From Longimicrobiales bacterium (GTDB taxonomy: Bacteria; Gemmatimonadota; Gemmatimonadetes; Longimicrobiales; Gaopeijiaceae), in contig CBDCKN010000003.1 in NCBI GenBank assembly GCA_965218295.1, positions 514,391 to 578,390 on the forward strand: a stretch of DNA of 64,000 nt, in the 5' to 3' direction. Shown piece after piece: positions 17,351 to 43,683 of this stretch. The notes below the pieces were generated by a model. That model searched no databases, was not told the DNA's origin, and worked only from the letters and a program-made list of their open reading frames with translations. Within the stretch, counting starts at the first letter, position 1, and every line of letters begins with the position of its first letter. The position numbers and the translations under genes are program-made.

Positions 17351-17466
17351 CCTTCCCGCGTAGGGATTGATGGATCGGGAGCGACCCCAAGGGACGGGGG
17401 CAGGGGTGTGAAAACACACCTGCCTCCGAACCCGTACCAGGCCCTCGGACTGGGGGGTCGCTCCCG
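17351..17466 (+). repeat. Structured three-way-junction element, copy 1
   Basis: CCTTCCCGCGTAGGGAT leader, then GGGAGCGACCCC...GGGGTCGCTCCC outer stem with internal hairpins. Confidence 0.75.
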
Positions 17467-17649
17467 TCCCGGTCAGTGCTGCCCGTGCGGCGCTGACCGA
17501 CCCGGCCGCGAAGGCGCAAGACGCGCTAATTCAATTGTAAGTTGTTGTTATATAATGATTTACTACTGACCAGTCTCACCACATTCCCTCATTAAATCCC
17601 TCTTCTGCGGCGGGAATTCATGGGGCAGTCCAAGACGTCTTCGGACGCG

Positions 17650-21600: not shown

Positions 21601-22105
21601 CCGGCGCGAAGAACTCAAGCGGCAGCGGGCCGTGACACTGCAGGGTGTCGAGCGGCTGGCGAGCGTACTCATCCTGCCCCATCCGGAAGGCAGCATCCTC
21701 GATGTCCGACGGCTACGCCCCCATCCCGAAACCGAGATGACTGCCATGCGGGTGGTCATGGAGTATGAGACTGCGCAAGGACGCCAGGTCTATGACGTCC
21801 ATGAGAAGAACCTGGGCTACGACGTGACCAGCCTTGATCTCCAGTCTGGTGAGCTGCGCCTGATCGAGGTAAAGGGTCTCGCGGCCGCCACCGGGAGCAT
21901 CCTACTCACGCCGAACGAACGCCGCGTTGCCGAGGACCGTCCGGACTGTTTCTGGCTCTATGTGGTCACCAACTGTGCGAGCAGGCCTGAGCTCCGGGAG
22001 CCGATCAAAGACCCGGCCCGCTTCCCCTGGCATGAGGTCACCAAGGTTCAACACTACTGGTTGGACGTCGATGCTATGACGCAGCCACCGAGAGAAAGAG
22101 GATAG
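18695..22105 (+). CDS. SNF2-family helicase with C-terminal DUF3883 (NO VEIN-like) nuclease domain
   Basis: LPHQ, LADDAGAGKT, DEAH, TATPH, GEGINLQ and QRMGRIHR; GYDVTS..LIEVKG. Confidence 0.92.
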   Translation: MLSAEVPIREGQVLTGPLFSEPMQVETVRANGPGVWVAGLVGQRSERFRRVTLTSADIAKLSIADSALSYDGDGRLLRIALQAYSLGIAWEFDPYFGLSISRVDPLPHQLEAVYEHLLKLPSVRFLLADDAGAGKTIMAGLLVRELKLRGLIERVLVVCPANLSFQWQRELKEKFDEKFVVLKGSDIRDQFGVNQWMEQKQIITSLDLAKRTEIFPGVQQVHWDLVIVDEAHRMSARDESHKSQRYRLGEMLRDSTDHFLLLTATPHKGDPENFTLFLQLLDRDAYADVKSIHEAMDRRRAPFYLRRTKEAMVYFPERQADGAWTAKPVFTKRIPRTAAFAIDGPEFELYQKITRFVKRQSARAAAEGDDPRARAVGFLMSLYQRRLASSTYAMRRSLENRVRRLEEGLKRAQDLVRMAPPDLPDWEELEEFEEAERERLERMLEAVTLAGNAEQVREEVAELLGLAEEAKAVEGSANEAKLGHLHKIMQDEGFFDRPDQRLLLFTEFKDTLDHLMEQLKAWGFSVGCIHGSMKPGSRDEPGSRLYTEQQFREGAIQVLVATEAAGEGINLQCCHILFNYDIPWNPNRLEQRMGRIHRYGQQHDCLIFNFVATNTIEGRVLQRLLDKLQEIRDALDDDAVFNVVGEILPSAHLERVLRDYYAGKLGDADLEERLLKDVDERHFRAICQTALEGLAAKKLNLDMLTERRARAQERRVVPESIARFIKESAQDAAFALKPARDLAHTFQPGRTPPSLRKYEREPDWRLTDLANRYPRLSTDRETAEKHNLEWVTPGHALFEALRRHSLDRGLEAFARGACFHSLAHDAPARLDFYRARVVDGLGQVIHERLFTVELTADRSPRLREPDVLGDMSPTVLSDDLPPVATLAEPTAWLNENALVPFIEEVRAERLAEVERIGEHVELSLTEVLQRIDEEIGRAADEVANEITGAEGRLTQAETRHTEVLVRRERRREELKRQRAVTLQGVERLASVLILPHPEGSILDVRRLRPHPETEMTAMRVVMEYETAQGRQVYDVHEKNLGYDVTSLDLQSGELRLIEVKGLAAATGSILLTPNERRVAEDRPDCFWLYVVTNCASRPELREPIKDPARFPWHEVTKVQHYWLDVDAMTQPPRERG

Positions 22106-22173
22106 CTAGTGTCTGGATCCCTCATCGAATCAGTGGATGGATCAACCGACGGGCATCTCCCAGGAAAGGCCCA

Positions 22174-25131
22174 ATGATTCCCAAGGAGTGCAAACGGCTG
22201 GCCGAGGTCGACTTTCCGATTGCGGAAGTCTCGAAACACGCGGTGCGAGAAAAGTCGATTCGGCATGGCCATCCCTCGACACTGCACCTGTGGTGGGCGC
22301 GGCGACCCTTGGCGTCGTCGCGGGCGGTGTTGATGGCATTGCTGCTGCCGGACCCATGCGACGCACGCTGTCCCGAGGCGTTCAAGCGGGACGCGCGCCG
22401 GATTCTCTTGGGTATGCACGGACGACCGCAAGGTTGGATCTCGGAGATCGAGCGGGATGAGGGATTACGGCGGATTGTCCTGAAGTTCATTGCCGACTTC
22501 GCCAACTGGGACCGTGCTTCCGACCGCACCTATCTAGATGTCGGCCATGCGCTCGTGAGGGCAGCACACGGCGAAGAACGTCCTCTGGTCGTGGACCCGT
22601 TTGCAGGTGGAGGCTCGATCCCGCTGGAGGCGCTACGTCTCGGCTGCGAGGCATTCGCCAGCGATCTCAACCCCGTGGCCTGCCTGATCCTGAAGGTGAT
22701 GCTGGAGGACATTCCACGTAACGGGCCGGGACTGGCTGAGGAGCTGCGTAAAGTCGGTGGGGAGATCAAGCAGCAGGCTGAGCGGGAGCTAGCCGATCTG
22801 TATCCGGCTGATCCGGACGGGGCGACACCCATTGCCTACCTCTGGACACGAACGGTGCGATGCGAAGCGCCGAACTGCGGCGCAGAGATTCCGCTCATGC
22901 GCTCCTTCTGGCTGTGCAAGAAGCCGAGGCGAAAGTGGGCGCTGCGACACCGGGTCGAGCGGGCACAAGGCGCGCTGCCGCGAGTCGAATTCGAAGTGTT
23001 CGAGCCAGATGCAGGAAAGGACGTGCATGGAGGTACCGTGACGCGAGCCAGGGCGACCTGCCTTTGCTGCGGCGCGGTCCTAGCACCTGATCGGGTACGG
23101 CCACAACTAGCAGCCCAGCGGGGCGGGGCGGATGTCGCATTCGATGAACAGGGCCGCCGAACAGGCGGTGCGCGCATGACGGCGGTGGTGACGCTTAAGC
23201 CCGGCGAAAGGGGGCGACATTACCGGTTGCCTACGGATGCGGACTACGCGGCGGTGTATAAGGCACAAGAGCGAATCGCCGGGATGCTAGACGAGTGGGA
23301 ACGCGGTGGGAAGCAAGGGCTATGCCCGGTGCCGGATGAGAGGATCGAACTGACGGAGATCCGGCGTATCAGCGTGCCAATCTACGGCATGCTGCAGTGG
23401 GGCGATCTGTTCACGGCGCGGCAGAAGGTGGCGTTGGTGGAGTTGGGGCAGCTTACCGTTTCGGCTGGCTCGGTGAGACAGTTTCTGGCGCTAGCTTTGA
23501 CCAGGGCAGCCAATGCCGGCTGTTCGCTCTGTAGATGGCATACAACGGGAGAGAAGCACGAGGGTGTCTTTTCTCGTCAAGCGCTTCCAATGGTCTGGGA
23601 CTTTAGCGAAGGGAACCCGTTCTCAGGATCGACCGGCGGCTATGACGGCGCTCTGGACTGGATTGCCAACGTAGTAAGTGCTTGGCCAGGATCTATCGCT
23701 GGCCAAGTTCAAGCCGCCGACGCCACCGACCATCCCTTACCTGACCAAACCGCCAGCGTCTGGTTCACCGATCCGCCCTACTACGATGCGGTTCCCTACG
23801 CGCACCTGGCGGATTTTTTCTATGTTTGGCTCAAGCGAGTACTGCCCGATCATCCGTTACTAAGGTCTGTTGATCCTGACAGCCGCACGACGCCCAAAGA
23901 GCGAGAGATTGTGGTAGACCGGCCTCATCGACTAAGCAGTTCCAAGAAAGACGCGACGTTCTACGAAAAAGAAATGGCCGCCGCCTTCGCCGAAGGCCGC
24001 CGGGTGCTGCGCCAGGACGGCGTAGGCTCTGTCGTCTTCGCCCACAAGACGACAGAAGGCTGGGAGGCACTGCTTTCTGGCATGATCCGGGGCGGTTGGA
24101 CCATCACCGGCTCCTGGCCCGTCGCGACGGAAATGGGTTCGCGCCTCAACGCACGGGAGACGGCGTCGCTTGCCACCAGCGTCCACCTCGTCTGCCGTCC
24201 ACGACCCGTGGAAGCGCCTGTCGGCGACTGGGCGGATGTCCTGCGCGAACTGCCCGCACGCGTGGCCGATTGGATGGAGCATCTGCAAGGCGAGGGCATA
24301 CGAGGCGCAGATCTAGTCTTCGCTTGCATCGGGCCCGCACTCGAGATCTTCAGCCGCTACCGTGCGGTCGAGACCGCGGAGGGCCGGAACGTAGGCTTGC
24401 CCGAGTACTTGGAGAAGGTCTGGGAGGTCGTCGGCCGCGCGGCGCTTCAGCAGGTGCTCGGCACATCAGAAGCGCGAGCGCACAACGGCCTCGCGGGTAC
24501 GTTGGAAGAAGACGCACGCCTTACCGCGCTCTTCCTCTGGACACTGCAGAGCACGGACACCTCCGAAGAGAACGGCAAGAAAGACCAGGACGAGGAAGTC
24601 GTGGCCAACTTAGCGGCCAAGGGATTCAGCCTGCCCTTCGACGTCGTGCGCCGCTTCGCCCAACCGATGGGCATCGACCTCGATGTCTGGACCGGACGCA
24701 TTGTCGGGCAGGAAGGGGGTGTGGTGCGCCTGCTGCCAGTGACCGAGCGGGCGGAGAGGCTATTCGGCGAAGACGGTGCGCGGGCCGCCGCCGACTGGAT
24801 CGAGAGCGACCCGGGTGCTGACGTACAGGCGACACTTTTCCCCGACTTCGAGCCCACGCCAAGGCCGAGGCACCGTCGTCCAGGAAGGCAGAACATCCTC
24901 GGCAGCGATGCGGAACTTCAGACGATAGACGCTACGACGCTGGATCGTGTGCACGCGGCCATGCTGCTTCAAGCCAGCGGCCACGCCAATGCGCTACGGA
25001 AGCTGCTCGGCGCCGAACAGGATCGCGGTCCCGAGTTTCTGCGGCTTGCTAACGCTCTGTCCTCCCTGTACCCGCGTGGCAGCCGGGAAAAGCGGCTGCT
25101 CGATGCCATGCTATTGGCGGTACCACGGTGA
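22174..25131 (+). CDS. DUF1156-domain adenine-specific DNA methyltransferase with Zn ribbon
   Basis: LHLWWARRPL, DPFAGGGSIP (SAM binding), TDPPYY (catalytic) and FAHK. Confidence 0.92.
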   Translation: MIPKECKRLAEVDFPIAEVSKHAVREKSIRHGHPSTLHLWWARRPLASSRAVLMALLLPDPCDARCPEAFKRDARRILLGMHGRPQGWISEIERDEGLRRIVLKFIADFANWDRASDRTYLDVGHALVRAAHGEERPLVVDPFAGGGSIPLEALRLGCEAFASDLNPVACLILKVMLEDIPRNGPGLAEELRKVGGEIKQQAERELADLYPADPDGATPIAYLWTRTVRCEAPNCGAEIPLMRSFWLCKKPRRKWALRHRVERAQGALPRVEFEVFEPDAGKDVHGGTVTRARATCLCCGAVLAPDRVRPQLAAQRGGADVAFDEQGRRTGGARMTAVVTLKPGERGRHYRLPTDADYAAVYKAQERIAGMLDEWERGGKQGLCPVPDERIELTEIRRISVPIYGMLQWGDLFTARQKVALVELGQLTVSAGSVRQFLALALTRAANAGCSLCRWHTTGEKHEGVFSRQALPMVWDFSEGNPFSGSTGGYDGALDWIANVVSAWPGSIAGQVQAADATDHPLPDQTASVWFTDPPYYDAVPYAHLADFFYVWLKRVLPDHPLLRSVDPDSRTTPKEREIVVDRPHRLSSSKKDATFYEKEMAAAFAEGRRVLRQDGVGSVVFAHKTTEGWEALLSGMIRGGWTITGSWPVATEMGSRLNARETASLATSVHLVCRPRPVEAPVGDWADVLRELPARVADWMEHLQGEGIRGADLVFACIGPALEIFSRYRAVETAEGRNVGLPEYLEKVWEVVGRAALQQVLGTSEARAHNGLAGTLEEDARLTALFLWTLQSTDTSEENGKKDQDEEVVANLAAKGFSLPFDVVRRFAQPMGIDLDVWTGRIVGQEGGVVRLLPVTERAERLFGEDGARAAADWIESDPGADVQATLFPDFEPTPRPRHRRPGRQNILGSDAELQTIDATTLDRVHAAMLLQASGHANALRKLLGAEQDRGPEFLRLANALSSLYPRGSREKRLLDAMLLAVPR

Positions 25132-25135
25132 CGGC

Positions 25136-26101
25136 ATGGCAACCGAAGTAAACGAGCGCACTATATGGCAGGTTTCCGCTGGTCCGACCAACCGGTCCTA
25201 CGCCGACCAATTCTTGATTCACGGTGTCGCGCTGATCGGTCCCGGGGATACGGGGCCGTGGCGACCTGAACGGTCTGACGAGGAATTCGAAGGTGGGTTC
25301 GTTCGGCGTTTCGCCGCCGAGCTTCGTGTCGGGGACGTACTGCTGCTTCGGACGGGTCTGTCGACCATTCGTGCGGTTGGCCTGGTTGCATCGGACTACC
25401 AGTACCTACCGCAATTCGACGATGTAAATGGGTGGGACCTACAGCACGCCCGGCGCGTGCGCTGGTGTGCACTTCCGGAACCGTACGATCTCGGCAACCG
25501 GGTGTTCGGCGCCAACCCGCCCCGGCTCTCACGTATTCAGGCAGAGGAGATCGTTAGGTACGCGAGTCAGGTTGTTCAGTCACCACCCACGGATTGGCAA
25601 GCGCGCGCCTTGCCGAGCCTACCGGTGGAGGAACCGACACTCGGGACACCACCGCCTGAATTGGAGGAGCTAGTCGCTCAGGTACATGACCTATTGCCAC
25701 TCTATTGGGACACGGTGACGTTCGGCGAGCGACCCATGGAGGACGAGTTGGTCGTGCACTACGTCGTTCCTTTCCTGCGCGCGCTGGGATGGCCCGTCGA
25801 GAAGATTGCGGTGCAGTGGCGCCATGTCGACGTCACCTTGTTCACCAGGCTGCCCAGAGTCCCGGAGCATTGCCACTACCTGATTGAGGCCAAACGGCTG
25901 GGTGCGGGTGTTGAAGGCGCGCTCGGTCAGGCGATCGGATACGTCTCCGCCCTCGGCATCCAATGCGACGTCGTCGTTACGGACGGCATCCGCTACCGCA
26001 TGTACGAAGCGGCCAAGGATTTCGCGCCCGTCGCATACGCGAATCTCGCGCGCCTCAAGCGGTCGTCTCTAGAGCTGTTCAACCGTATGCGAAGGCCGTA
26101 A
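25136..26101 (+). CDS. McrB-N/EVE-like domain fused to HsdR-N-like PD-(D/E)xK endonuclease
   Basis: N-terminal F..E.RVGD...I.AVG.V.SDY...RRVRW; C-terminal PFLRALGW, VD, IEAK, QAIGY and VTDG. Confidence 0.7.
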   Translation: MATEVNERTIWQVSAGPTNRSYADQFLIHGVALIGPGDTGPWRPERSDEEFEGGFVRRFAAELRVGDVLLLRTGLSTIRAVGLVASDYQYLPQFDDVNGWDLQHARRVRWCALPEPYDLGNRVFGANPPRLSRIQAEEIVRYASQVVQSPPTDWQARALPSLPVEEPTLGTPPPELEELVAQVHDLLPLYWDTVTFGERPMEDELVVHYVVPFLRALGWPVEKIAVQWRHVDVTLFTRLPRVPEHCHYLIEAKRLGAGVEGALGQAIGYVSALGIQCDVVVTDGIRYRMYEAAKDFAPVAYANLARLKRSSLELFNRMRRP

Positions 26102-26114
26102 CCGGAGGAGAATC

Positions 26115-28877
26115 GTGGACCCGTGGTACAAAATCGTGACCCTCCGTCAGGAAGTCCGGGAAGGCCGCTCGTTCAGTCCGGACGAGTTCGCCATCGCCCT
26201 CGAGCAGGTGGTCGCACAGACGGCTCCAGAGGATTACCGTGACCCGGCGCAGTTCTTCTCGCGGACCTGCTTCACCCGGGCGTTGGAAGAGCATGCCGGG
26301 ATGGTGCTCCGGCGACTCTCGGGCAAGACCGAGAACACGGCGCCGGTCCTTACGCTGATCACGCAGTTCGGCGGTGGCAAGACGCACACACTCACCTCGC
26401 TCTACCATCTGGCCAACGCCGGCGCGGAGGCCTCTGAACTCCCCGGCGTGGCCGATCTTCTTAACGAGGCTGGGATAGTGGAAGCGCCTTCCGCGCGCGT
26501 CGGCGTATTCGTAGGCAATGCCTGGGATCCGGCGGAGGGACGGGAGACGCCCTGGATCGATCTGGCTCGCCAACTGGCTGGCGAAGAGGGCGTCGCTGCG
26601 CTTGGTGCCGCCGCCCGGACCACACCACCGGGAACCGAGTCACTGGCGAGAGTATTTGCTGCCGCCGACGCGCCGGTCCTGTTGCTGTTCGACGAGGTAC
26701 TGAACTTCGTCAACCGCCACCGAGGCATGGCCGAGAGCTTTCACGCCTTCATTCAGAACCTGACCGTCGCCGTCACAGGCACCAGGCACGCTGCAGCCGT
26801 CATCAGCTTGCCTCGCAGCCAGGTCGAAATGACCGATTGGGACCAGCAGTGGCAGGACCGGATCAAGAAGGTGGTCGGGCGCGTCGCCCGCGACTTGATC
26901 GCCAATGACGAATCCGAGATCAGCGAGGTCGTGCGTCGCCGGCTGTTTCAAGACCTCGGTGCTGTGCGCGTTCGCAAGAAGGTCGCCAAGGCCTATGCGG
27001 ACTGGTGCTTCGAGCGTACAGCCCGCCTTCCCCCGGAGTGGCTGGCGGTCGACACGGCGACGACAGAGACCAAGGCAAGGGAGTTTCTGAGGGGCCGGTT
27101 TGAGGCGTGCTACCCGTTCCATCCAGCGACCCTGTCCGTCTTTCAACGGAAGTGGCGCGCACTCGCCCAGTTCCAGCAGACTCGCGGCGCACTGGCCATG
27201 CTTGCGCAGTGGATCTCTTGGGCCAATCGCGAGCACTTCGGAAAGGCACGCAAGGAGTCGCTCATCACGCTCGGATCGGCGCCATTGGACGTGCCGGAGT
27301 TCCGCGCCGTGGTTTTGGGCCAATTGGGCGAGGCTCGGCTCGACGTGGCCATCGACTCCGACCTGGCCGGTCCGATGGCGCATGCAAAAGCCCTGGATGT
27401 GGACGCTCAGGGTGTTCTGCGCGACATCCACCGCCGCGTGGGCACAACCATCCTATTCGAGTCATCCGGCGGACAGGTGGACAAGGTGGCTCATTTGCCC
27501 GAACTGCGCTTCGCGCTTGGTGAGCCAGAGGTCGATACCACCACCATCGACAACGCTGCGGCCGCCCTGGAGACATCCGGGTTCTTCATTCGCAAGGTCG
27601 GGACGGACGGCTACCGCATCCATCACCAGGCGACATTGAAGAAGGTCGTCAGCGACAGGCGTGCTTCGCTGGACGAAGAAACGGAGATCAGGCCGGCAGT
27701 CCGCAAGCTCGTCGAAAACGAGTTCAGGCGTGGTGCAACCCTGCCCGTCGTCGTCTTCCCGGAGGACAGTGCCGCAGTCCAGGACTCGCCGCGCCTCGCG
27801 TTGATCGTCGTCGACCCGGAGACGGAATGGAAGGACAGTGACCAGGTAGTCGAGCGGATCGGCGAATGGACGAAGGAACGGGGCAAGTCACCGCGGCTCT
27901 ACCCTGGCTCGTTGGTCTGGTGCGCCAGGAAACCAGGACGTGAACTTCGCGAGAAGGTTGAGTTGTGGCTTGCTTGGCAGCGTGTGGCGCGCGAGGTGGC
28001 GGAGGGTGTCCTAGGTGCCGAGTTCGACCGTGCTGACCGTGTCGAAGTCCAGGTCAAGGCCAGCGAAGCGGAGGAAGCCTCCAAGGACGAAGTGTGGGCC
28101 AGCTATCGCTTCGTGGCACTGTCCGATTCAGAGGCGCAGTACGGTCTCAAACGCATCGACCTCGGCGCCGGCCACGCTAGCGCGACCGAAACGCTCTGCG
28201 GCCGTGTCATCGGAGCGTTGAAATCCGAGGCCCTGCTGAACGAGAGCGTAGGCGCCGGTTACATTGACCGTCACTGGCCGCCCACGTTCCAGAGCACCGG
28301 GGCATGGCCGCTCACGAGCTTGCGACAGAGCTTCCTCGACGGCTCGCTAACACGGTTGATCGACCCCGATGCGATCCTCCGTAGGCAGATCACAGCGTTC
28401 GTGGAGAACGGAGACTTCGGCTTGGCATCCGGTGCCGAGAACGATGGCACCTACAGTCGGCTGTGGTATGACGAGCTGATCCGCCAAGAAGAGGTCGCCT
28501 TTGAATCGGGTGTCTTCCTGTTGACTAAGGCCAGAGCCGAAGAACTCAAGACCATGCCTGCAGGGGATGAGCACCCACAACCCGGACCCCCACCAGGCCC
28601 GGGCCCGGAACCCGAGCCTGAACCGGGACCTGATCCAGAGCCAACTCCGGTTGCTGAGAAGACAATCCTTCGCCTTGCCGGTACCGTGCCCCCCGAACTC
28701 TGGAACCGGCTCGGAACTAAAGTCCTGCCTAAGCTCCGGTCGGGAGACGACCTCAGGGTAGGCATCGAGTTCTCCGTGAGTGTCAGCTCGCAGTTTGTTG
28801 GGAACATGGAGACCGAGCTGCAACAGGTGTTGGACGAGCTCGGGCTGAGCAACACGATCCGCGTTCAAAGGTTGTAG
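26115..28877 (+). CDS. DUF499 family AAA+ ATPase
   Basis: PWY....RQEV, EFAIAL, TQFGGGKTH, LLFDE and YPFHP; Pro-rich linker near the C-terminus. Confidence 0.9.
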   Translation: MDPWYKIVTLRQEVREGRSFSPDEFAIALEQVVAQTAPEDYRDPAQFFSRTCFTRALEEHAGMVLRRLSGKTENTAPVLTLITQFGGGKTHTLTSLYHLANAGAEASELPGVADLLNEAGIVEAPSARVGVFVGNAWDPAEGRETPWIDLARQLAGEEGVAALGAAARTTPPGTESLARVFAAADAPVLLLFDEVLNFVNRHRGMAESFHAFIQNLTVAVTGTRHAAAVISLPRSQVEMTDWDQQWQDRIKKVVGRVARDLIANDESEISEVVRRRLFQDLGAVRVRKKVAKAYADWCFERTARLPPEWLAVDTATTETKAREFLRGRFEACYPFHPATLSVFQRKWRALAQFQQTRGALAMLAQWISWANREHFGKARKESLITLGSAPLDVPEFRAVVLGQLGEARLDVAIDSDLAGPMAHAKALDVDAQGVLRDIHRRVGTTILFESSGGQVDKVAHLPELRFALGEPEVDTTTIDNAAAALETSGFFIRKVGTDGYRIHHQATLKKVVSDRRASLDEETEIRPAVRKLVENEFRRGATLPVVVFPEDSAAVQDSPRLALIVVDPETEWKDSDQVVERIGEWTKERGKSPRLYPGSLVWCARKPGRELREKVELWLAWQRVAREVAEGVLGAEFDRADRVEVQVKASEAEEASKDEVWASYRFVALSDSEAQYGLKRIDLGAGHASATETLCGRVIGALKSEALLNESVGAGYIDRHWPPTFQSTGAWPLTSLRQSFLDGSLTRLIDPDAILRRQITAFVENGDFGLASGAENDGTYSRLWYDELIRQEEVAFESGVFLLTKARAEELKTMPAGDEHPQPGPPPGPGPEPEPEPGPDPEPTPVAEKTILRLAGTVPPELWNRLGTKVLPKLRSGDDLRVGIEFSVSVSSQFVGNMETELQQVLDELGLSNTIRVQRL

Positions 28878-29539: not shown

Positions 29540-29800
29540 TGGGAGGTCGTGGCAATCGCCCGTGCCCCACGGGAGCTAGAGCGAGGCCGGGCGATCCTCG
29601 GAGGCTGGGCCGCGGCCTCCGGGCCGGAGGCGCCGGACGCCGGGGTTTCTGAAGAGGCCGCCCGCATTGAGCGGGTGATCCTTCATGGCGACGAGCGGGC
29701 ACTCGGGGAGTACGGCGGTCTGCAGGCCGCCAAGAAGCGAAGCGTCGTGCTGAGGAAGCGCGCACGCCAAGGGCTGACGGCAACGGTGCGCCTCTCCGGG
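29540..29800 (+). pseudogene. C-terminal remnant paralogous to the element backbone gene at 42788-43683
   Basis: EVVAIAR..RELERGR.....WA.ASGP..PDAG..EE.ARIER.IL.G...GGLQAA.KRSVVL matches the 42788 ORF. Confidence 0.8.
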
Positions 29801-29842: not shown

Positions 29843-30100
29843 TGTGAATACGACCCGGGCGGTCGATTCACAGATGACCCCGGTCGCGATTCACAGAGGC
29901 ATGGCTCGCGATTCCTTTGCGGTTGTTGCGGTTACGCCTGGTGCTGCCTGGTCGGCGGGGACGCACCGGGCTCGCCGACCGGGATGGGAGCGACCCCCCC
30001 TGTGGACGCCCTAGTAATGGCGTCGGCCGGTGCGGGTTTTCACAAACCTCGCACCGCCCCCGGGGGGTCGCTCCCGTTCCAATGATCCCTCGCGAGAAGG
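29843..30100 (-). repeat. Three TTCACA/TGTGAA boxes plus structured element, copy 2
   Basis: Boxes at 29843, 29867 and 29890; stem 29986-30075; leader (rc) ends at 30100. Confidence 0.75.
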
Positions 30101-30417
30101 CCGTCATCCGCCAACGAAGACCCCGGCCAAGGACCTAGTGACGTCGCCGGCGCGACCGCCAAGCGGCATCAATTGGTCGCGGGAAAAGTATATCCTCTGG
30201 CGTATAGTTCGGCGTCTTGCCGTCACGAGGGAAGGGCCCCTAGCCTGTGCTGCCTGTGCCAAACCTCGGTGATTATATACTTGACGCAGCGGTCGAGGTT
30301 TTATGCAGAGCCTTGTGGGGCTCGATGCGGGCAGCCAATATGGGCGCTACGCAATGGCTACGCACGAACGGCTGCACAAGGGTTACGTTACCCTTACTAA
30401 CCCAAGAGAGGTGCGTG

Positions 30418-30852
30418 ATGGACAGGACATCTTTCGTGCTTGCTGCGATGTCTCCGGCCAACGGATCGCCATTTTCTCCGGTTCAGGTCCAGAAGCTGTT
30501 TTTCCTCCTGGACCAGAACGTGACGGACCACATTGGCGATGGCCCCTACTTCCAGTTCAAGCCCTATGACTACGGGCCATTTGATCCACAGGTCTACTGC
30601 GAACTCGAAGAAATGGAGGCCGATGGGTTGGCTGAAATCCACGATCCCCCGTTGAAGTCTCGCACCTACCGGTTGACCGAGAAGGGTCAAGAGAGGGGGG
30701 CGGAGGCGCTGGCCGAAGTGCCGGAGGGCATCCGGGTGTACATCGGCAATCTGGTGGACTTCGTTCGATCGCAGTCTTTCACAGAATTGGTCTCAGCTAT
30801 CTACCGAGCCTATCCGGACATGAAGGTGAATAGCGTCTTCGTGAAGCCGTGA
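30418..30852 (+). CDS. SocA/Panacea (DUF4065)/YwgA-like protein
   Basis: VQVQKLFFLL, YFQFKPYDYGPFD and YRLTEKG motifs; GAGG RBS. Confidence 0.7.
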   Translation: MDRTSFVLAAMSPANGSPFSPVQVQKLFFLLDQNVTDHIGDGPYFQFKPYDYGPFDPQVYCELEEMEADGLAEIHDPPLKSRTYRLTEKGQERGAEALAEVPEGIRVYIGNLVDFVRSQSFTELVSAIYRAYPDMKVNSVFVKP

Positions 30853-31607
30853 CCCTGATCGTTGGGGTCAAGTGCAGGGATGGCGTAGTCATCGGCACCG
30901 ACAGTGCATTGACCCTGGGCATCTCGACGCAGGTTCATACCATCGAGCAGCCGCTAAGGAAGAAGATCGACATTATTCAGAACCGCGTAATCGTCGCCGG
31001 TACTGGGCAGTTTGGCTTGGGGCAACGATTCGTCGCGCAGGTGGATCACTATTGGGCCGCCTCGGCGAACCGAGACCTACCTGCCATCGAAATAGGGAAG
31101 CGGCTTTCAAGGGCAGCACTCGATGACTTCGCGGAGACAAGAATGCCCCCTGGGGCCTATGGTGCCCTGGTCGCCCTTCCATGCCGGAAGAGCTTCGAGC
31201 TCATTGAGTTCGCCTCGGCTGACTTCCAGCCCGAGGTGAAAACGGAAGATTACTGGTATGCTTCCATGGGAAGTGGACAGGCCGTAGCCGATCCGCTCCT
31301 AGGGTTCATGCGGTACACATTCTGGGGCGATTCGCCGCCCAGCAGGCAGGATGGGGTCTTCGCGGTCACAATGGTGTTGACGCTTGGATGCCAGATGGCA
31401 ACCCTGGGCGTCGCTCCGCCCGTTCAGATGGCGGTACTAAGAAAGGACGAGAAAGGAAAGCTGCTGGCGCGCCGAATAGGCGAGGAGGAGCTACTGGAAC
31501 ATGAGACGAATGTCGAAAGTGCGATAAAGTATTTCCGTCAATATCAGTCGATACTTCAGGAGCCCCAGGAGTCTTCCAGGGAGCTGCCACAGGCACCGGG
31601 GAAGTGA
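30849..31607 (+). CDS. Proteasome-beta-like Ntn threonine peptidase
   Basis: (M)TLIVGVKCRDGVVIGTDS gives Thr1/Asp17; KKI, AGTG and ASMGSG motifs; GTGA overlap with the upstream gene. Confidence 0.8.
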   Translation: MTLIVGVKCRDGVVIGTDSALTLGISTQVHTIEQPLRKKIDIIQNRVIVAGTGQFGLGQRFVAQVDHYWAASANRDLPAIEIGKRLSRAALDDFAETRMPPGAYGALVALPCRKSFELIEFASADFQPEVKTEDYWYASMGSGQAVADPLLGFMRYTFWGDSPPSRQDGVFAVTMVLTLGCQMATLGVAPPVQMAVLRKDEKGKLLARRIGEEELLEHETNVESAIKYFRQYQSILQEPQESSRELPQAPGK

Positions 31608-32028
31608 CGGGGGGCGGGTTCATCTGGGGTGATCCCGCCTCGCCCGCCACCGCCGATAGCCCCGTCTCGGCGATCAGGTCCCCCAACCCCTAACTGGCCG
31701 CTGGCATCCGCAACGGCGACACCTGTCGGAGTTATCAGACGATGAGCGAGAAGAAGCGGAAGCCGTACCAGAAGGGGCAGCCTGACCGACGCATGATTAT
31801 ACAGCCCGTAGCGGGTCACATGTAGGGCCGCATATTGTTGAGCCGCTAGTGCATAGCTATGCGGATTCTGCAAGAGGTACACAATCACCGACCGGTCCGT
31901 TTTGGGGTGGTGGCGTACAATGTGAAAGGAAGAAAGCACCAATGAATGAGCGGATCCCTCTCTGCCAACTTACGTGAGACACGGAGCAGCTAAGGAATTA
32001 GAGTAGGGCGAAGGCAGAGAAACCGAGG

Positions 32029-32478
32029 ATGCTGAGACACCGAGAGAGAATGAAAGAGAATGGAATAGCCCCACCAACCTGGGACGGTAAGCGAAGCGCG
32101 GCAGCTCCTGCGGACTCGGAGGTGGTAGATAGGCCGCTGCGCCGGCGGTTCGCTCCGTCGTACAAGCTGCGGATCGTCGAAGAAGCGGACCGGTGCACGG
32201 AGCCCGGAGAGGTTGGCCGACTCCTACGGCGGGAGGGCTTGTACTCGTCGCACCTGACGACATGGCGCAAGGCGGCGCATAGCGGGTCCCTGAAAGCGCT
32301 GTCGAAGAAACGAGGCCGTAAGCGCGAGCGCAATCCGCTGGAGGAGAAGGTGCGCAAGCTGGAGCGCGAGAACACTCGCCTCGAGAAGGAGCTCCAGAAG
32401 GCGCACTTGATCATCGACGTCCAGGGAAAAGTTGCAGGGCTGCTGGGATTGAGCCTCGAGGACGGGACGAACTCATGA
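32029..32478 (+). CDS. IS3 transposase OrfA
   Basis: RRRFAPSYKLRIV and LLRREGLYSSHL.TWR HTH plus coiled coil. Confidence 0.9.
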   Translation: MLRHRERMKENGIAPPTWDGKRSAAAPADSEVVDRPLRRRFAPSYKLRIVEEADRCTEPGEVGRLLRREGLYSSHLTTWRKAAHSGSLKALSKKRGRKRERNPLEEKVRKLERENTRLEKELQKAHLIIDVQGKVAGLLGLSLEDGTNS

Positions 32479-33482
32479 AGGCGACCCAGGAGCTAGCCAA
32501 GCACGTAGGGGTGAAGCCCGCGTGCGATGCGCTCAGGGTGCCGCGAGCCACGTTCTACCGTCGTCGGAGTGCATCGACCGGGCATCAGCAGCCCCGCCCG
32601 ACCCCCGCCCGGGCCTTAAGCGAGAAGGAACGAGACAAGGTCTTCGACACGCTGTGTTCGGAGCGGTTCGTGGACCGGTCCCCAGCCGAGGTGGTGGCGA
32701 CGCTGCTCGACGAGGACGTCTACCTGTGCAGCGAGCGTACGATGTATCGCGTTCTGGCTTCCCAGGTGCCGGTTCAGGAGCGTCGAGCGCAGCGGAGTCA
32801 TCCCAAATACCAGAAGCCCGAGTTGATGGCGAGGGGCCCGAACCAGGTCTGGTCCTGGGATATCACCCGGCTGCTGGGGCCGAAGAAGTGGAGTTACTTC
32901 TACCTCTACGTGATCCTGGACATCTTCAGCCGCTACGTCGTGGGATGGATGGTGGCGGATCGGGAGAACTCTGCCCTGGCCAGCCGGCTGATCCAGCAGA
33001 GTTGCTTGAAGCATGGCGTCCAGCCCCACCTCCTGACCCTGCATTCCGATCGAGGGGCTCCGATGACGAGCCAATGCACGGCTCAACTACTCGCCGATCT
33101 CGGCGTGACCCGCTCGTTGGGCCGACCCCAGGTCTCGGATGACAATCCGTTCTCCGAGGCTCAGTTCAAGACCTTGAAGTACCATCCCTCGTTTCCCGGC
33201 CGGTTCGGGGATCAGGGGCAAGCCAAGACCTTCTGTCGCTCGTTCTTCCGTTGGTATAATGCCGAGCACCGCCATGGCGGCATCTCGATGCTGACCCCCG
33301 AACAGGTCCACTTCGGTCACGCCGATCGGATCATCGCCTGCAGGAAGGCCGTGCTCCGTGAGGCATGGGCCGCTCATCCCGAGCGCTTCGTCTCCGGTGA
33401 GCCGAAGCCTAAACCACTCCCGGAGGCCGTCTGGATCAATCCTCCCACCCCATCCCTCACTACACAGGAGATTGCTCTCTAA
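32475..33482 (+). CDS. IS3 transposase OrfB (DDE)
   Basis: WSWDIT, HSDRG and DNPFSEAQFKTLKY. Confidence 0.95.
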   Translation: MKATQELAKHVGVKPACDALRVPRATFYRRRSASTGHQQPRPTPARALSEKERDKVFDTLCSERFVDRSPAEVVATLLDEDVYLCSERTMYRVLASQVPVQERRAQRSHPKYQKPELMARGPNQVWSWDITRLLGPKKWSYFYLYVILDIFSRYVVGWMVADRENSALASRLIQQSCLKHGVQPHLLTLHSDRGAPMTSQCTAQLLADLGVTRSLGRPQVSDDNPFSEAQFKTLKYHPSFPGRFGDQGQAKTFCRSFFRWYNAEHRHGGISMLTPEQVHFGHADRIIACRKAVLREAWAAHPERFVSGEPKPKPLPEAVWINPPTPSLTTQEIAL

Positions 33483-33553
33483 TTGATTTCCAAGAGTGTC
33501 TCACTGGCGTTGACAGGTTCCGGATATCATCGTCAGCAAGAAGTGATCGATCC

Positions 33554-33979
33554 ATGCGAGTAGCACTTGTCTCATGCGTCAAGTCCAAGAGTGCGGCCCC
33601 CGCAGCGGCCCGCGACCTGTACACGTCGCCATTGTTCCGCGGGCTGCGCCGGTACGCCGAGAAGAACGCAGACACCTGGTTCGTCCTTTCCGCACAACAT
33701 GGGTTGATTCCCCCAGCCCAGGTACTTGAGCCGTATGAGAGGACGCTCAATCGGCTCGGTAAGGCCGAGAGGCTACAATGGGCAACGCTGGTCCAACGAC
33801 AACTACTTGAGGTTCTGCCACTCGGGGCCGAGGTGGTCATCCTGGCCGGTGTACGCTACCGGGAAAACCTCGTTCCTTTTCTCCGCGACCGTGGTTTCTC
33901 TGTTACCATTCCGCTCGAGGGCCTCTCCTTCGGGAAACAACTTCAGCATTTGAAGATCCAAGGCCTGCTCGGGGAATGA
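33554..33979 (+). CDS. DUF6884-like protein
   Basis: LVSCVKSK...ARDLYTSPLF, VLSAQHGLI, EPYE.TL and LAG..Y. Confidence 0.8.
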   Translation: MRVALVSCVKSKSAAPAAARDLYTSPLFRGLRRYAEKNADTWFVLSAQHGLIPPAQVLEPYERTLNRLGKAERLQWATLVQRQLLEVLPLGAEVVILAGVRYRENLVPFLRDRGFSVTIPLEGLSFGKQLQHLKIQGLLGE

Positions 33980-34683
33980 CCTCAGACGTAGACCGGTTCT
34001 ACGAACTCGTTGGCATCCTGGCAACGCTGCCGGGTCAAGGTCGGCGGCTCGGTGAATACACGGGTAGATCGGCTTGGCCGGATCGCGGCGTGTACTTCTT
34101 CCGTGATCCGGGTCAACAGCGAACCGGGCACCCAGAGATGTCGCGTGTTGTCAGGGTAGGGACCCACGCCGTGAGCGCGAACGCCACGTCCAAGCTGTGG
34201 CCCCGGTTGCGGGCGCACCGTGGCGGGAAGGACGGACGAGGGAACCACCGCGGATCCGTTTTCCGGCTCCATGTGGGGTTGGCGCTGCTCCAAAGGGATG
34301 GAGGCGCCGCTGCCGTGCCAAAATGGGGTATCGGCCGATCGGCCGCGCGCGACGTGAGGAACGCGGAAGTTCCTCACGAACGCCTGGTGTCCGAGTACAT
34401 CGTGGGGTTGTCGATACTGTGGCTGGCCGTACCCGACGACCCGGGTCCACGCAGTGCACGTGCTTACGTTGAGCAGAATTCTATAGCGTTACTCTCCAAC
34501 GAGTTCAGTCCGATGGACCGGCCCAATAGCGAATGGCTGGGTGTCCACAGTTCCAAGAACGAAATCCGAATGAGCGGACTTTGGAATGTGAAACATGTGG
34601 CACGACAGTACGACACACACTTCCTCGACCGGTTCGAAGAACTAATACGGAAGATGCCGGGTTCCCCGATCCCCTATCGTTGA
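33976..34683 (+). CDS. Putative GIY-YIG-like nuclease
   Basis: RGVYFF..VVRVG, RLRAH, SVFR and conserved E/N near the C-terminus; ATGA overlap. Confidence 0.6.
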   Translation: MTSDVDRFYELVGILATLPGQGRRLGEYTGRSAWPDRGVYFFRDPGQQRTGHPEMSRVVRVGTHAVSANATSKLWPRLRAHRGGKDGRGNHRGSVFRLHVGLALLQRDGGAAAVPKWGIGRSAARDVRNAEVPHERLVSEYIVGLSILWLAVPDDPGPRSARAYVEQNSIALLSNEFSPMDRPNSEWLGVHSSKNEIRMSGLWNVKHVARQYDTHFLDRFEELIRKMPGSPIPYR

Positions 34684-34950
34684 TCGTTTGTCCTCACTCG
34701 TTCTTCGTCCCGCCCAGATCCCCTACAGCTTCCTACCTCCTGCCGCCGCGTCAGGCAGTGGCGTGAGCCCGGTAGATCTGTTTCTTCGTCGTCAGCGCCC
34801 AAGCCATGTCCGCCATCAGCCACGCGGCCGGATCGCATCCGGGCCCTGGCCTGGCCGGGATGCGCCGGGTTCCGTGACACAATTTTAACACAGGTCGGGT
34901 AGACTGGACGCGAAACGTGTCAGAGTAATGACTCAATCGGAGTAGAGTAG

Positions 34951-35175
34951 ATGACGGACACGCATCGCGTCCTTCCTCACCCAGACGGTGGCTGGCAGGT
35001 GAAGAGAGACGGGAACGACCGCGCTTCGAAGCGGACTCGGACAAAGGCCGAAGCCGAGGCGATCGGTCGGAAGACTAGCCGGAACCAGAGGACTGAGATG
35101 GCCGTCCACCGGAGGGACGGGACGATCGAGCGGCGGGATAGCCACGGGAACGACCCGGCGAGCCGGCCCGGTTGA
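34951..35175 (+). CDS. DUF2188 family protein
   Basis: GGWQVKRDG..RAS....TK.EA...GR and HRRDGTI..RDSHGNDP. Confidence 0.9.
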   Translation: MTDTHRVLPHPDGGWQVKRDGNDRASKRTRTKAEAEAIGRKTSRNQRTEMAVHRRDGTIERRDSHGNDPASRPG

Positions 35176-35176
35176 G

Positions 35177-35983
35177 GTGGAGAGCCTAGAGCCTCTGAAG
35201 GTCCTGATCTGGGCCAAGACCTACCCCGAACTATCCAAGAGGAACCGCGAGACGGTTTGCACAGGAGGGTGTCTGGACGACGGCACGCCCATCCGCCTCT
35301 ACCCGGTGCCGCTCCGGTATCTCCCAGGCACGAGCCAATACCGGCTCTACGACTGGATCTCTATCCCGCTTCGGCGCAACCCATTGGACACCCGTCCTGA
35401 GAGCTTCCGGGTCGCACGTGGAGTGATCCCGACGACGGTCGGCAGGGCAACCGCGACTCATGGCTGGGAGGCGCGGAGGGAGATCCTTTTCAAGCGACGG
35501 GATTGGTACTTTGACTGTGCCTCGGACCTACAGGCTGCTCAACAGCGCGCCGGGACCTCGCTCGGACTCGTAACCGTGCGCCACGTTGATCGAGTGAGTA
35601 TGGTAAAGAGACCGGGAAGCGATCGGGTCGAGCACGAGGCAAAGCTGGACGCCCTGAGAGCTAACCGGGACCTGTTCGGGCGGGCCGGCCGTCAGAAAGA
35701 CTTGGAGTTCCTGCCCTGGCGTTTCAAGCTCCGGTGGCGCTGCGAGGCACAGGGATGCGGTGGCCACTCGGCATCCGTCCTAGACTGGGGGCTCGGCGAG
35801 TTGGCGCGCCGCGAGGGACCGGAGAAAGCCATGGCCAAGCTCCGAGAGTTGACCGACCTGGGACGCTACGACCTGCGGCTCTTCCTTGGAAACATGAAGG
35901 CGCGGCCTCGGACGTTCAGCATCGTCGGGCTCTGGTATCCGTTGCGCTCTGAGCAAGCCCAGACTTCGCTGTTCATCGAGTGA
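35177..35983 (+). CDS. Conserved hypothetical protein (KTYP..S...ETVC family, possibly OB-fold)
   Basis: KTYPELS...ETVCTGG, IRLYPVP, D.RPESF, C....C.GH and DW motifs. Confidence 0.7.
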   Translation: MESLEPLKVLIWAKTYPELSKRNRETVCTGGCLDDGTPIRLYPVPLRYLPGTSQYRLYDWISIPLRRNPLDTRPESFRVARGVIPTTVGRATATHGWEARREILFKRRDWYFDCASDLQAAQQRAGTSLGLVTVRHVDRVSMVKRPGSDRVEHEAKLDALRANRDLFGRAGRQKDLEFLPWRFKLRWRCEAQGCGGHSASVLDWGLGELARREGPEKAMAKLRELTDLGRYDLRLFLGNMKARPRTFSIVGLWYPLRSEQAQTSLFIE

Positions 35984-36431
35984 CGAAGCGGGGCGCCCCG
36001 TCTGGATCGAGGTGCTCGACTCGTGCTTCGAGGCCGAGCGCTTCAAGAAGGATGTGGCGGTGACAGTCTTCCGGATGCCGCTCGTAGCAAAACAGGCAGC
36101 CCTTCTCGCCCTCGCGGGATAGCTCCTCGAGTATCGCCTGGAGGCGTTTCGCGATCTGAGGATGCTCGTTCAGATACGCTCGATACATCACTAGGCACTC
36201 GTCGTGAGATCGGGCGCTCTGCCGGATCCACTTTGGGTTGCCCGCGAACTGTGCGTGGAGATATCGGATCCCTCGCTCTGCAAGCGCAGCTTCCAGCGCT
36301 GCGGCTCGGTACCCAGGGACATGACTCCATGGTGTCTCTCGGACGTCGATGACGACCGACACACCGGCGCCGGCCAGTTCGGTCAGAAGGTTGTCCAGCG
36401 GTCGAAGCTGGTATCCGACTGTAGTTACCAC
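35973..36431 (-). CDS. DUF488 family protein
   Basis: TVGYQ, IDVRETPWS, GNP and CYER.PEDCHR. Confidence 0.88.
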   Translation of the reverse strand: MVTTVGYQLRPLDNLLTELAGAGVSVVIDVRETPWSHVPGYRAAALEAALAERGIRYLHAQFAGNPKWIRQSARSHDECLVMYRAYLNEHPQIAKRLQAILEELSREGEKGCLFCYERHPEDCHRHILLEALGLEARVEHLDPDGAPRFVTR

Positions 36432-36839: not shown

Positions 36840-36989
36840 GACACATCACACACCCCTTTCTCGATCGAGGCGGCCTTGGCACACGTGGTCCGGAACAAGG
36901 TCGAGGCTGCCTACTCGCGCACGGACCTGTTCATGAGTCGGCACCGGCTCATGAACGACTGGGCGGCGTATCTGGCGGGCGAGGCCTGA
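36840..36989 (+). pseudogene. P4-like integrase C-terminal remnant
   Basis: IEAALAHVVRNKVEAAYSRTDLF...RLMNDWAAYL, nearly the same as the 41280 integrase tail. Confidence 0.85.
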
Positions 36990-37149
36990 GAACCCTTCGG
37001 CCGGTGCTTCAAGCGGCGCTCCGGGAGCAGCTTCGAGGGCGTCTGCTGGCACGGCTTGGTGCGCCTTTCGTAGTGAGAGCCAGCCCACGTATGTGGACAT
37101 TGCGCTCTGGCGAGGGGATGCTGCGCTCCCCTTCGAACCCCCGGCTTGC

Positions 37150-37877: not shown

Positions 37878-38010
37878 CTCACGTAGGCGGTCCAGTCGTT
37901 CATGAGCCGGCGCCGACGCTCGAACAGGTCCGTTCACCTGTAGGCCGCCTCGACCGTTCCGGACCACCTGTGCGAGTGCCGCCTCTATGACCTCGCGGGG
38001 ATGATCCACG
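37878..38010 (-). pseudogene. P4-like integrase C-terminal remnant
   Basis: DHPREVIEAALAQVVRN...DLFERRRRLMNDW. Confidence 0.8.
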
Positions 38011-38047: not shown

Positions 38048-38306
38048 CCTTCCCGTAGGGATCCATGGCTGGGAGCGACCCCCCGGCGGAGGGTGGCATG
38101 GGTGTGCACATGCCAGCCCTCCCCGATGCCGATCAAGGCATCCCCAAAGGGGGGGTCGCTCCCATCTACGGCCGAAAGCTCCAGAGCGGCGTCTCCGCTC
38201 CGACGGCCGTGCCACAACTGTAAGACAGGCAGCCGTATACGGAAGCGCTGGCGCGCACATGGAATTGGCGTTTCGGTGCACATGCACCCCGTTGTCTGAT
38301 GTGCAC
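38048..38306 (+). repeat. Structured element copy 3 plus three G(T/C)GCAC boxes
   Basis: Stem 38071-38163; boxes at 38253, 38276 and 38301; close inverted paralog of 45765-46026. Confidence 0.85.
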
Positions 38307-38537
38307 TCGCCGATCAGCACCCACCCGAGCCGATCCGCGTTCATGACCAGCCTCCGGGGAGCCGGTTCGAGCGCCATGTCGCGAACCCGTGGATCACCCG
38401 CCTGACGGATGGCCTGCCCGATCCGGGCGGTCTCGCGGCGGGCCGCTTGGTTGGATGAGCCGGACGGGTCGGATGCTCGGGCTCCAGGGCCCACTAGAGG
38501 GTGCCTACCCAGGATCGGGGCGGGGGGGCGGGGGTGG

Positions 38538-39260: not shown

Positions 39261-39765
39261 GATGCTTCGACTCTATTTCCAGTGAACCATGATTGATCGA
39301 GAAACCGAGTGGCCATCCTAACGTACTGTCGGTGCCAGGAGCCATTGGGAAGACAATCCTCAGTTCGATGAACCTGTCCGTCAAGCTGGATTCCTGCCGT
39401 TTCGAGTTCACCCGGCGCTCGATGCTGACATCTAGGGTCGACGCGGCCGGGACGACGCTTGCCGCCCTTCCGCAGCGAACGCTAGATGGACCATGCGGTT
39501 CGTCCACGCAGTGTTACCGCGGCGGACGGGATCGTGGGAGAGAAGGGCGTATCGGACGGTGAGTCTGGACATAGCCTGCTCCGCATGATGACCGGGTGCT
39601 ACGGGTTCCACCTAGAACAGCTCGGCCTCCGGGTCTAGAGTCTCGCCGGCCAGGTAGGCCGCCCAGTCCGCTATAGCATAGATCATAACGCTATGTTACA
39701 TCACATCTTATGACTTCAGATGATCTTCGTCTATCACCCCTGCAATCACCCTTTCCGCTCAACAG

Positions 39766-42787: not shown

Positions 42788-43683
42788 TCATCGGTAGCGC
42801 GCCCCCGCGAGACGCACCGTCCGCCAGGTGCTGGCCCGCCGGATGGACCCGGGTCCGGGCTGGCGGCGCACCTGCTTCTCGAGCACGACGCTACGCTTCA
42901 TGGCGGCCTGCAGGCCTCCGAACTCCTCCAGGATCTGCACCGCGCCCTGAAGGATCGGCCGCTCGATCCGGGCCAGTTCCTCGCGGATCCCGGCGTCGGG
43001 CTCGCCGGGGCCGGAGGCTTCGGCCCAACCGCGCATCACGCGCCGGGCTCGCTCGAGCTCCCGCGAGGTGCGCGCGACGGCGACGACCTCGACGGACCGG
43101 CCTTGTCCCTGGAGCGCGTGCCAGAGCCCGCGGTGCGCCGCGCCCCAGGAGCGGAGCGCGGTCGCGGTGTCGTGGCCGGGATCGACGTAGACGAACACGG
43201 CGCGGCCCGAGTCCAGCGCGATGGGCAGTTGAGCGGGAAGCAGCGCCGGGTCGTGCCGGCGGCTCCCCGGTAAACCCGGACGGGCAGCGATGCGGGTTCG
43301 ATCCCGAGCGCCTCGAACGCTCCGACCTTCTCGTGCTCCGTGGCAAGCCAGGGCAGACCCGTGTGCTCGATCACATAGTCGAGCGAGAGCAGGCCCGCAT
43401 GAGCACGCCGGGAGACGCCGTGCGGCGGTGGCGGATGTGCTCGGCTCCGAGCACGCGATAGAGGCTCCGTGCGTAGATCCGGCACACGCGGCCGATCCCC
43501 CGGACGCGGGGCACGGTCTCCTCCGCTGCCGAGCCCTGCGCGATCAGCGCGTGGACGAGGCGGCGCGCCCGTTCGTGATGCGTGTCCAGGAACCGCGTCG
43601 CCTGCGCGCGGGTGAAGGCGCCGCTGTGGAGGCAGGCGAGCGCGATCCACTCGGCCTTGCGTTCCTTCCAGCCGGGCGATCAT
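42788..43683 (-). pseudogene. Integrative-element backbone protein (wHTH-like N-terminus, possibly replication/relaxation-like), frameshifted
   Basis: Stitched frames give AEWIALACLHSGAFTRAQ, LLSLDYVIEH..LPWLATEHEK and VFVYVDPG; paralog remnant at 29540. Confidence 0.6.

Follow-up and report, generated by a model that had tools for sequence, protein, structure and literature searches.

The question raised by this locus is what a small SocA/YwgA-like protein and a proteasome-beta-like peptidase, encoded by two overlapping genes within a bacterial defence island, might do together. The genes lie in a stretch of 64,000 nucleotides from a Longimicrobiales bacterium (contig CBDCKN010000003.1), here called the window, and the original prediction was that they form a proteolysis-based system, either an adaptor feeding its own protease or a toxin-antitoxin pair with a protease toxin. 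Both open reading frames, referred to below as A and B, were recovered where they had been placed, as was their GTGA overlap (Table 1). Homologues of gene A start at a methionine equivalent to that of the window protein, and in most homologous loci the gap between the stop of A and the start of B is between -16 and +33 nucleotides. No sigma70-type promoter passed a scan of positions 29900-32100. Low-depth contigs in two metatranscriptome runs lie on both A and B, one of them across the overlap, which is not proof of transcription.

Table 1. Features of the A-B gene pair, in window positions unless stated otherwise
Feature	Position	Strand	Description
Gene A	30418..30852	+	144 aa, ATG start; acidic protein with a winged helix, in the YwgA / DarG-C-terminal / Panacea-like group; guard (antitoxin/sensor) by prediction
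Gene B	30849..31607	+	252 aa, GTG start; stand-alone proteasome-beta-like Ntn hydrolase; predicted effector protease
GTGA stop/start overlap of A and B	30849..30852	+	Read from sequence; translational coupling
Shine-Dalgarno-like sequence ahead of the gene A ATG (30418)	30406..30413	+	Read from sequence
Mobile two-gene cassette, approximate extent	30294..31732	.	Contig matches, skipped-pair contig, GC drop
Catalytic residues of B (mature numbering)	Thr1, Asp17, Lys38, Gly52		No propeptide; long C-terminal helix

The surroundings are indeed a defence island, with the HmaABC operon (18695-28877) on one side of the pair and an IS3 element followed by the PADLOC candidates PDC-M57AB, PDC-S16 and the PDC-M19-like gene PDC-M19B (33554-35983) on the other. 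Genome and neighbour scans agree with the earlier statement that no HslU, proteasome alpha, Pup or transglutaminase gene is nearby. In the source genome, which is 90.7% complete, neither a Pup ligase nor the N-terminal motif of proteasome alpha subunits was matched. Its two transglutaminases are both on contigs other than that of the pair. Besides B the genome has a single PF00227 gene, located where contig C7 begins and read by eye as HslV followed by HslU.

The Ntn-hydrolase N-terminus proposed for B is borne out by its family. The protein starts Met-Thr, with a mature Asp17, a lysine at mature position 38 and GSG at 141-143. An alignment of 252 B sequences was obtained and residues were counted on the 238 in which the N-terminus is present: 235 sequences retain Thr1, an equal number Asp17 and again 235 the Lys33 equivalent; the oxyanion glycine is conserved in 236, while the serine of GSG is less conserved (173/238). 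The absence of a propeptide also held, as an N-terminal extension occurs in only 3 of the 238. The kept catalytic residues and absent propeptide make it very likely, as far as sequence can indicate, that B is an active Ntn hydrolase. B matches Pfam Proteasome above the cut-off (E 3.4e-6) and has the beta-subunit fold with Thr1/Asp17/Lys33 and Gly47 of the Proteasome-like family (PF00227). Its AlphaFold2 model (pLDDT 87.3) is closest to proteasome subunits, with a TM score of ~0.7 and a Z of 21.9 (rmsd 3.1, 206 residues aligned). Anbu (5loy) follows with a Z of 19.8 over 214 residues, the predicted B helix 212-237 being aligned to Anbu, and HslV and BPH (Z 18.5) and connectase (Z 11.2) rank lower.

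The 20S proteasome beta subunit, HslV, Anbu, BPH and connectase therefore have a fold and catalytic centre in common with B, at 13-19% identity, but B is sporadic and mobile and does not behave as a housekeeping gene. It also differs in that genes for an alpha subunit, HslU, a Pup system or the Anbu operon are not linked to it. It is not a housekeeping HslV, Anbu or BPH, scoring far below family cut-offs and being found in none of 60 relatives. As a 20S proteasome beta subunit B reaches 27 bits against a cut-off of 224 (TIGR03634/TIGR03690), and the genome has no alpha subunit motif. Members of the B family match archaeal beta models in 46/48 cases and alpha models in 35/48, all far below cut-off. 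Only 3/48 members match HslV (best E 0.044), and a separate HslV-like gene is present on C7. The Anbu operon is described as including transglutaminase, ATP-grasp and alpha-E genes (PMC5666114), and these are absent among the 146 + 144 neighbour ORFs scanned. BPH is a compact subunit without the S12/H5 C-terminal elements (PMC8665760); strand 205-209 and helices 212-237 of B extend past the BPH alignment, which stops at ~201.

B best fits among the uncharacterised WPH (Widespread Proteasome Homolog) / group II homologues. Fuchs, Alva and Lupas catalogued 22 proteasome homologues in 2021, among which WPH and other group II members are similar to both alpha and beta, have no propeptide and often carry a C-terminal coiled-coil helix (PMC8665760). 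B has the similarity to both subunit types, the C-terminal helix and the missing propeptide, and like the published homologues it is a stand-alone beta-like protein with an intact triad and a broad, patchy distribution. The B family is probably already among these 22 homologues, for none of which a function, genomic context or co-occurrence pattern is given; the authors state that they met with no genomic context hinting at a function (PMC8665760). None of the accessions of homologues returned by our database look-ups is a representative listed in that study (WPH: WP_040339656.1). Unlike in the published account, B has an obligate winged-helix partner and behaves as mobile cargo. The family is large yet sparse, with 1,270 clusters at 50% identity at E ≤ 0.001 and 446 at E ≤ 1e-30. 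A derived relative with Ser1 and no Asp17, found without A at L156:1411-2412 and L157:1327-2283, is present in both sampled genomes of one family. Its gene is in divergent orientation to that of a coiled-coil protein with a winged-helix-like domain at its end, and the relative is possibly a domesticated, inactive offshoot.

The product of gene A is modelled (pLDDT 92.9) as a winged helix with extra helices. Compared with 48,161 chains, the model comes closest to 7yk3_D from the DarTG complex (Z 10.5, rmsd 4.6, 135 residues aligned), which we take to be the DarG C-terminal domain because the matches of A to the DarG HMM (E 1.7e-5), themselves weak, fall on DarG residues 167-285. In DarTG this domain is reported to be sufficient to bind and neutralise DarT (PMC7003065). 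The likeness extends over the whole length of A, but A is found without macrodomain or DarT and its partner is an Ntn hydrolase. The next structural matches are STAND, F-93 and PadR winged helices with a Z of 8.4 or below, PadR/MarR folds being at Z 7-8. A also matches the N-terminal domain of PDC-M19A (PADLOC, E 2e-9), part of a candidate system in which a YwgA-like/DUF488 fusion is paired with a partner; the partners in PDC-M19 are others, and B matches no PADLOC model.

The original label of A as SocA/YwgA-like holds at the level of the family, as a remote likeness. The window protein itself has no match to Pfam SocA_Panacea (PF13274) at E ≤ 0.1, thus not reaching the gathering cut-off, and matches NCBIfam SocA at E 0.042. 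Weak matches to SocA_Panacea are made by 26/38 homologues (best E 8e-7) and weak matches to PadR by 30/38, and the names attached to homologues include "SocA family protein" (NCBI, one homologue) and "YwgA" (JGI). The family carries an invariant Y-G-P, then a near-invariant F and an invariant D, a variant of the Panacea GPV signature. Compared with PanAT/SocAB (PMC8832971, PMC10440598) the domain is related, with GPF in place of GPV as the GP-hydrophobic motif. In both, a small antitoxin-like gene precedes an effector gene, and partners are swapped, in the case of A within its wider family; they differ in that SocA relies on the housekeeping ClpXP (PMC8832971) while A has a co-encoded protease. 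The main-text passages and supplements searched name no proteasome-like partner for PanAT/SocAB (PMC8832971, PMC10440598). A second motif, Asn-Ser-x-Phe (NSVF) near the C-terminus, is invariant in a 38-sequence alignment and is located 1-7 residues from the end of A in 119/120 homologues. A is acidic (pI 4.7 in the window; family median pI 5.4, net charge -3), and 80 regions upstream of A share no operator, yielding sigma70-like and tRNA-end words only and at most a slight excess of palindromes (mean 5.6 against 4.9-5.3 in shuffles). Together, the acidity and the missing operator argue against a DNA-binding repressor.

Homologues of A and B co-occur almost always in the GTDB, metagenome, viral and whole-genome surveys. 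Among 50 loci anchored on B, all 38 full-length, Thr1-bearing B genes have an adjacent A, of which 36 are intact, one is cut by a contig end and one is frameshifted, and the adjacency extends to distant B homologues (E 1e-9 to 1e-15). In GTDB, 28 of the 31 loci found with B have A, directly upstream in 27. Of 518 metagenome loci retrieved through A the best 80 were taken, and B was present in 73 of these, directly downstream in 69 and otherwise arranged in 4, with 3 loci at a contig edge and 4 lacking B. Viral loci with A have an adjacent B in 10/13 cases. Profile searching of four groups, with 1,529 whole genomes in all, added 19 loci, namely 12 intact pairs, 3 in which A is intact but B truncated, and 4 with a B-like gene that has neither Thr1 nor A. 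The pair is kept in head-to-head (L159), convergent (L078), reversed (L047) and transposase-split (L062/L063) forms, so the linkage goes beyond hitch-hiking in an operon. The distance matrices of A and B are correlated (r=0.54, 85 pairs, reached in 0/999 permutations), which speaks for co-inheritance only, since linked genes are expected to correlate. Median identity is 48% for A and 43% for B. Covariation between the proteins over the 85 pairs was underpowered, with a maximum Z of 5.8 against 5.7-6.9 under shuffled pairing, and prediction of the complex gave ipSAE values of 0.25 and 0.19, the mark being 0.32, which count neither way. Two apparent A-B fusions, P0401 and P0407, were rejected as frameshift artefacts, having no B N-terminus and linkers that look out of frame. 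Neither a recurring AAA+ partner gene (146 + 144 ORFs) nor a conserved third gene was found among the scanned neighbours.

While B is nearly always found with A, relatives of A take other partners. In 401 genomes of the phylum of the window 18 match A, and only 3 of these have B. One A subfamily, whose C-terminus is extended, precedes a DUF2335 membrane protein in 7/7 tested cases, two more distant relatives are followed by another membrane-like protein, one relative is a DUF488 fusion, and distant long forms are fused to a CopG-antitoxin N-terminus. This parallels Panacea, whose stand-alone domain is described as neutralising toxins directly and has been proposed as a sensor (PMC10440598), and by this analogy (PMC8832971, PMC10440598) suggests that A may be a reusable guard and B an effector. 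The seven DUF2335-coupled proteins (L129, L131, L133, L136, L140, L146 and L147) have an extension of ~60 aa, and such pairs are found in several genomes of the family of the window, sometimes in 2-3 copies; they are a candidate second system built on the same domain.

Damaged copies were also compared. A is intact with B broken or lost in ~11 lineages, and A is broken with B intact in 2, so decay leans to B breaking before A; the asymmetry is weakened by the bias of the locus collection and by B being the larger target. The locus L103 keeps A and then merely the first codons of B, and remnants of B without A could arise by single deletions through the overlap. The two opposite cases are L024, with a frameshift in A, and L040, with a stop nine codons before the end of A. 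A lethal toxin would not easily allow an intact B beside a damaged A, unless these are assembly errors.

The pair behaves as mobile cargo, occurring in ~1% of the 1,529 genomes and across many phyla. The window cassette has ~58% GC against 61-65% on its flanks, and in 24/31 GTDB loci the GC content of the pair is lower than that of its locus by 4 points or more. Contigs from three other samples match the ~1.4 kb cassette from 30294/30349 to 31702/31732 with unmatched ends, and one contig from another sample joins 30326 to 31832, omitting the pair as an empty site would, with a short side of 33 letters. No terminal inverted repeats surround the window cassette. In 4/26 loci examined, terminal inverted repeats with 8-bp target duplications bracket the pair as a passenger, alongside an IS1595 or IS1 transposase, and transposases or integrases are near it in 8/28 GTDB loci. 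Such IS1595/IS1-type elements (L004, L012, L015, L029; also L003, L062, L088) carry KilA-N, DNA methyltransferase or P63C genes as passengers besides the pair. By eye, the cassettes of L010, L103, L105 and L106 are at tRNA or tmRNA-like ends, and L003:5081-6985 encodes a DruA-like domain fused to a DDE transposase. On viral contigs the pair adjoins terminase, portal, capsid or integrase genes. B has no match in 72,556 plasmid records, 50,697 phage records or the PHROGs.

Association with defence genes, a check suggested with the original prediction, is strong at the window locus and moderate elsewhere. A clear PADLOC defence neighbour is within three genes of the pair in 6/28 GTDB loci as a raw count, and Hma, Shedu, type I RM, TIR, Abi_2 and capH were seen across loci. 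In metagenomes, genes for TIR, Abi_2, SNF2 helicase, STAND NTPase, NYN and HNH are among the neighbours; of the 261 ORFs picked 144 were scanned and, as picking was by length, small genes were missed. In many homologous loci the pair is solo amid housekeeping genes or within IS elements, outside defence islands.

A mobile guarded-protease module of the toxin-antitoxin or immune kind is the explanation we tentatively favour, at slightly under an even chance. Removal of the initiator methionine would expose Thr1 of B with no propeptide step, so that B, a predicted active and ATP-independent threonine protease, would need an external check. A would supply this by direct binding, like the DarG C-terminal domain and stand-alone Panacea domains, restraining B until a trigger, probably phage infection. 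If A were lost or altered, B would be set free and would cleave a protein essential to the host (or the phage); infection would thereby be aborted, and the cassette would become addictive as well. The long C-terminal helix in the model of B suggests Anbu/WPH-like dimers rather than a capped barrel. We infer binding, inhibition, toxicity and the phage trigger from the near-obligate linkage kept through rearrangements, the DarTG chain 7yk3_D as top fold match of A, the partner swapping of its wider family (DUF2335 at 7 loci, DUF488 fusions, CopG-antitoxin fusions), the conserved triad with neither propeptide nor recurrent AAA+ partner gene, and decay that leans to B breaking first. Rarity at ~1% prevalence, carriage as an IS passenger, phage positions and defence neighbours are further behaviour of toxin-antitoxin or defence cargo, and a conserved, mobile two-gene unit with a small antitoxin-like gene first has the make-up of a type II toxin-antitoxin system. 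Against this stand the clear defence neighbours in just 6/28 GTDB loci, with many solo copies amid housekeeping genes, the intact B of L024 and L040 unless these are assembly errors, the resemblance of A to PadR regulators (30/38 members; Z 7-8) and the mostly helical nature of the domain matched in DarG (Z 10.5). The strict one-to-one fidelity over deep divergence is also unlike the hyper-promiscuous Panacea and would fit an obligate enzyme-cofactor pair too. The broader proposal, that the proteasome-fold threonine protease is the effector and the Panacea/DarG-like winged helix its dedicated guard-sensor in a widespread, minimal, ATP-independent immune module on phages and transposons, is possible rather than probable.

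The fold of A and the partner swapping of its family favour the toxin-antitoxin branch of the original prediction over the SocA-type adaptor branch, which is less favoured. As a dedicated adaptor or sensor, A would activate B or bring it substrates, so that specific phage or mobile-element proteins are destroyed and the host is unharmed; we consider this rather unlikely. SocA is a precedent as a proteolytic adaptor for ClpXP (PMC8832971), no unfoldase gene is present among the scanned neighbours, the linkage is obligate and one-to-one, and lesions in A with an intact B are tolerated (L024, L040), but other Panacea antitoxins are described as binding toxins directly, without need for ClpXP or Lon (PMC8832971), and the pairing of A relatives with non-protease membrane proteins is easier to reconcile with a guard than with an adaptor for a protease. 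A transposon-spread accessory module for stress or proteostasis with no part in defence, or one for addiction alone, is distinctly unlikely: solo insertions amid housekeeping genes in many loci, the 22/28 loci without a clear defence neighbour and the A-less derived offshoot with Ser1 and no Asp17, present in both genomes sampled from one family (L156, L157), would agree with it, while conflict systems more typically show such rarity, frequent pseudogenisation, carriage by phages and recurrent defence neighbours. It is quite improbable that A is a winged-helix transcription factor cleaved by B on a signal, switching on genes of its neighbours or element by the logic of ImmR/ImmA or CapH/CapP. 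PadR-like matches in 30/38 members and the PadR/MarR folds at Z 7-8 point this way and protease-plus-HTH switches exist (PMC10440598), but A is acidic (pI 4.7), 80 upstream regions have no common operator and no conserved third gene is there to be regulated. Reversed roles, with A the toxin and the protease its antitoxin as in RosmerTA (PMC10440598), are highly improbable: A is conserved at least as well as B (48% vs 43%), yet it is intact with B broken or absent in ~11 lineages and its fold matches an antitoxin chain. Equally remote is a connectase-like transpeptidase that cuts A near NSVF and ligates it to a target such as a phage structural protein. The motif is invariant in 38 sequences and near the end of A in 119/120, DUF2335-paired relatives alter and lengthen this tail, and connectase shows the fold to be capable of ligation (PMC8665760); however, B is far from connectase (Z 11.2 vs ~22 for proteasome subunits) and keeps helices H1/H2, which connectase lacks (PMC8665760), and NSVF may merely pack on the fold of A itself.

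The pair is a real, conserved and undescribed two-gene unit, and may well be an undescribed toxin-antitoxin-type defence module. In line with the original prediction, no named system covering it was found in PADLOC 2023, NCBIfam 2026 or the literature: B has no PADLOC match at E ≤ 0.1 and no match to an anti-phage NCBIfam model, and the titles and abstract openings searched contain no description of the pair. The supplements of Kurata 2022, in which control terms were found, and those of NetFlax as far as covered have no proteasome, Ntn, HslV, Anbu or YwgA entry; these negatives are incomplete, as the supplements were covered in part or are mostly unannotated (the word "hypothetical" is used 1,068 times in a Kurata 2022 file of 1,268 pairs). 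If B belongs to one of the orphan families of Fuchs 2021, that family gains an obligate partner. Should B be a guarded effector, a proteasome-fold protease would join the known classes of toxin and immune effectors, and the Panacea/DarG antitoxin fold would be extended to a new partner. The guard-sensor immune module, if true, would give a first function and first partner to one of the orphan homologues nearest the proteasome ancestor, as a minimal ATP-independent two-protein system for targeted proteolysis on phages and transposons. Should A be an adaptor, it would show one way for a proteasome-like protease to become specific with no AAA+ unfoldase, a point of relevance to the origins of the proteasome and to compact programmable degraders. 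At 1.2 kb the unit is directly clonable and assayable.

Several further features were observed in the window. The hmaA-hmaB-hmaC operon (18695-28877, + strand) contains an extra ORF of ~320 aa at ~25133-26101, between hmaB and hmaC, with no Pfam match and weak PDC-S02 matches only. Positions 33554-36431 hold the PDC-M57A/B pair, PDC-S16 (DUF2188) and, convergent to each other, PDC-M19B and a DUF488 gene; the latter is without the YwgA-like N-terminal domain of PDC-M19A. The idea that A is the missing half of this DUF488 gene was rejected, as there is no similarity and nothing upstream. A hairpin-like motif is repeated at 17362-17489, 29962-30090, 38063-38309 and 45762-46000, the pair lying just after one of these. 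A gene remnant is duplicated (29543-29768 and 42865-43090), and copies of an integrase 3'-end are found at 36865-36995, 37880-38007, 39622-39668 and 41293-41451. These repeats suggest an island built up of stacked, related integrative elements that each bear cargo. The IS3-family element at 32029-33482 is skipped by one contig, which joins 31950 to 33521, and its relatives are very deeply covered in the metagenome runs examined.
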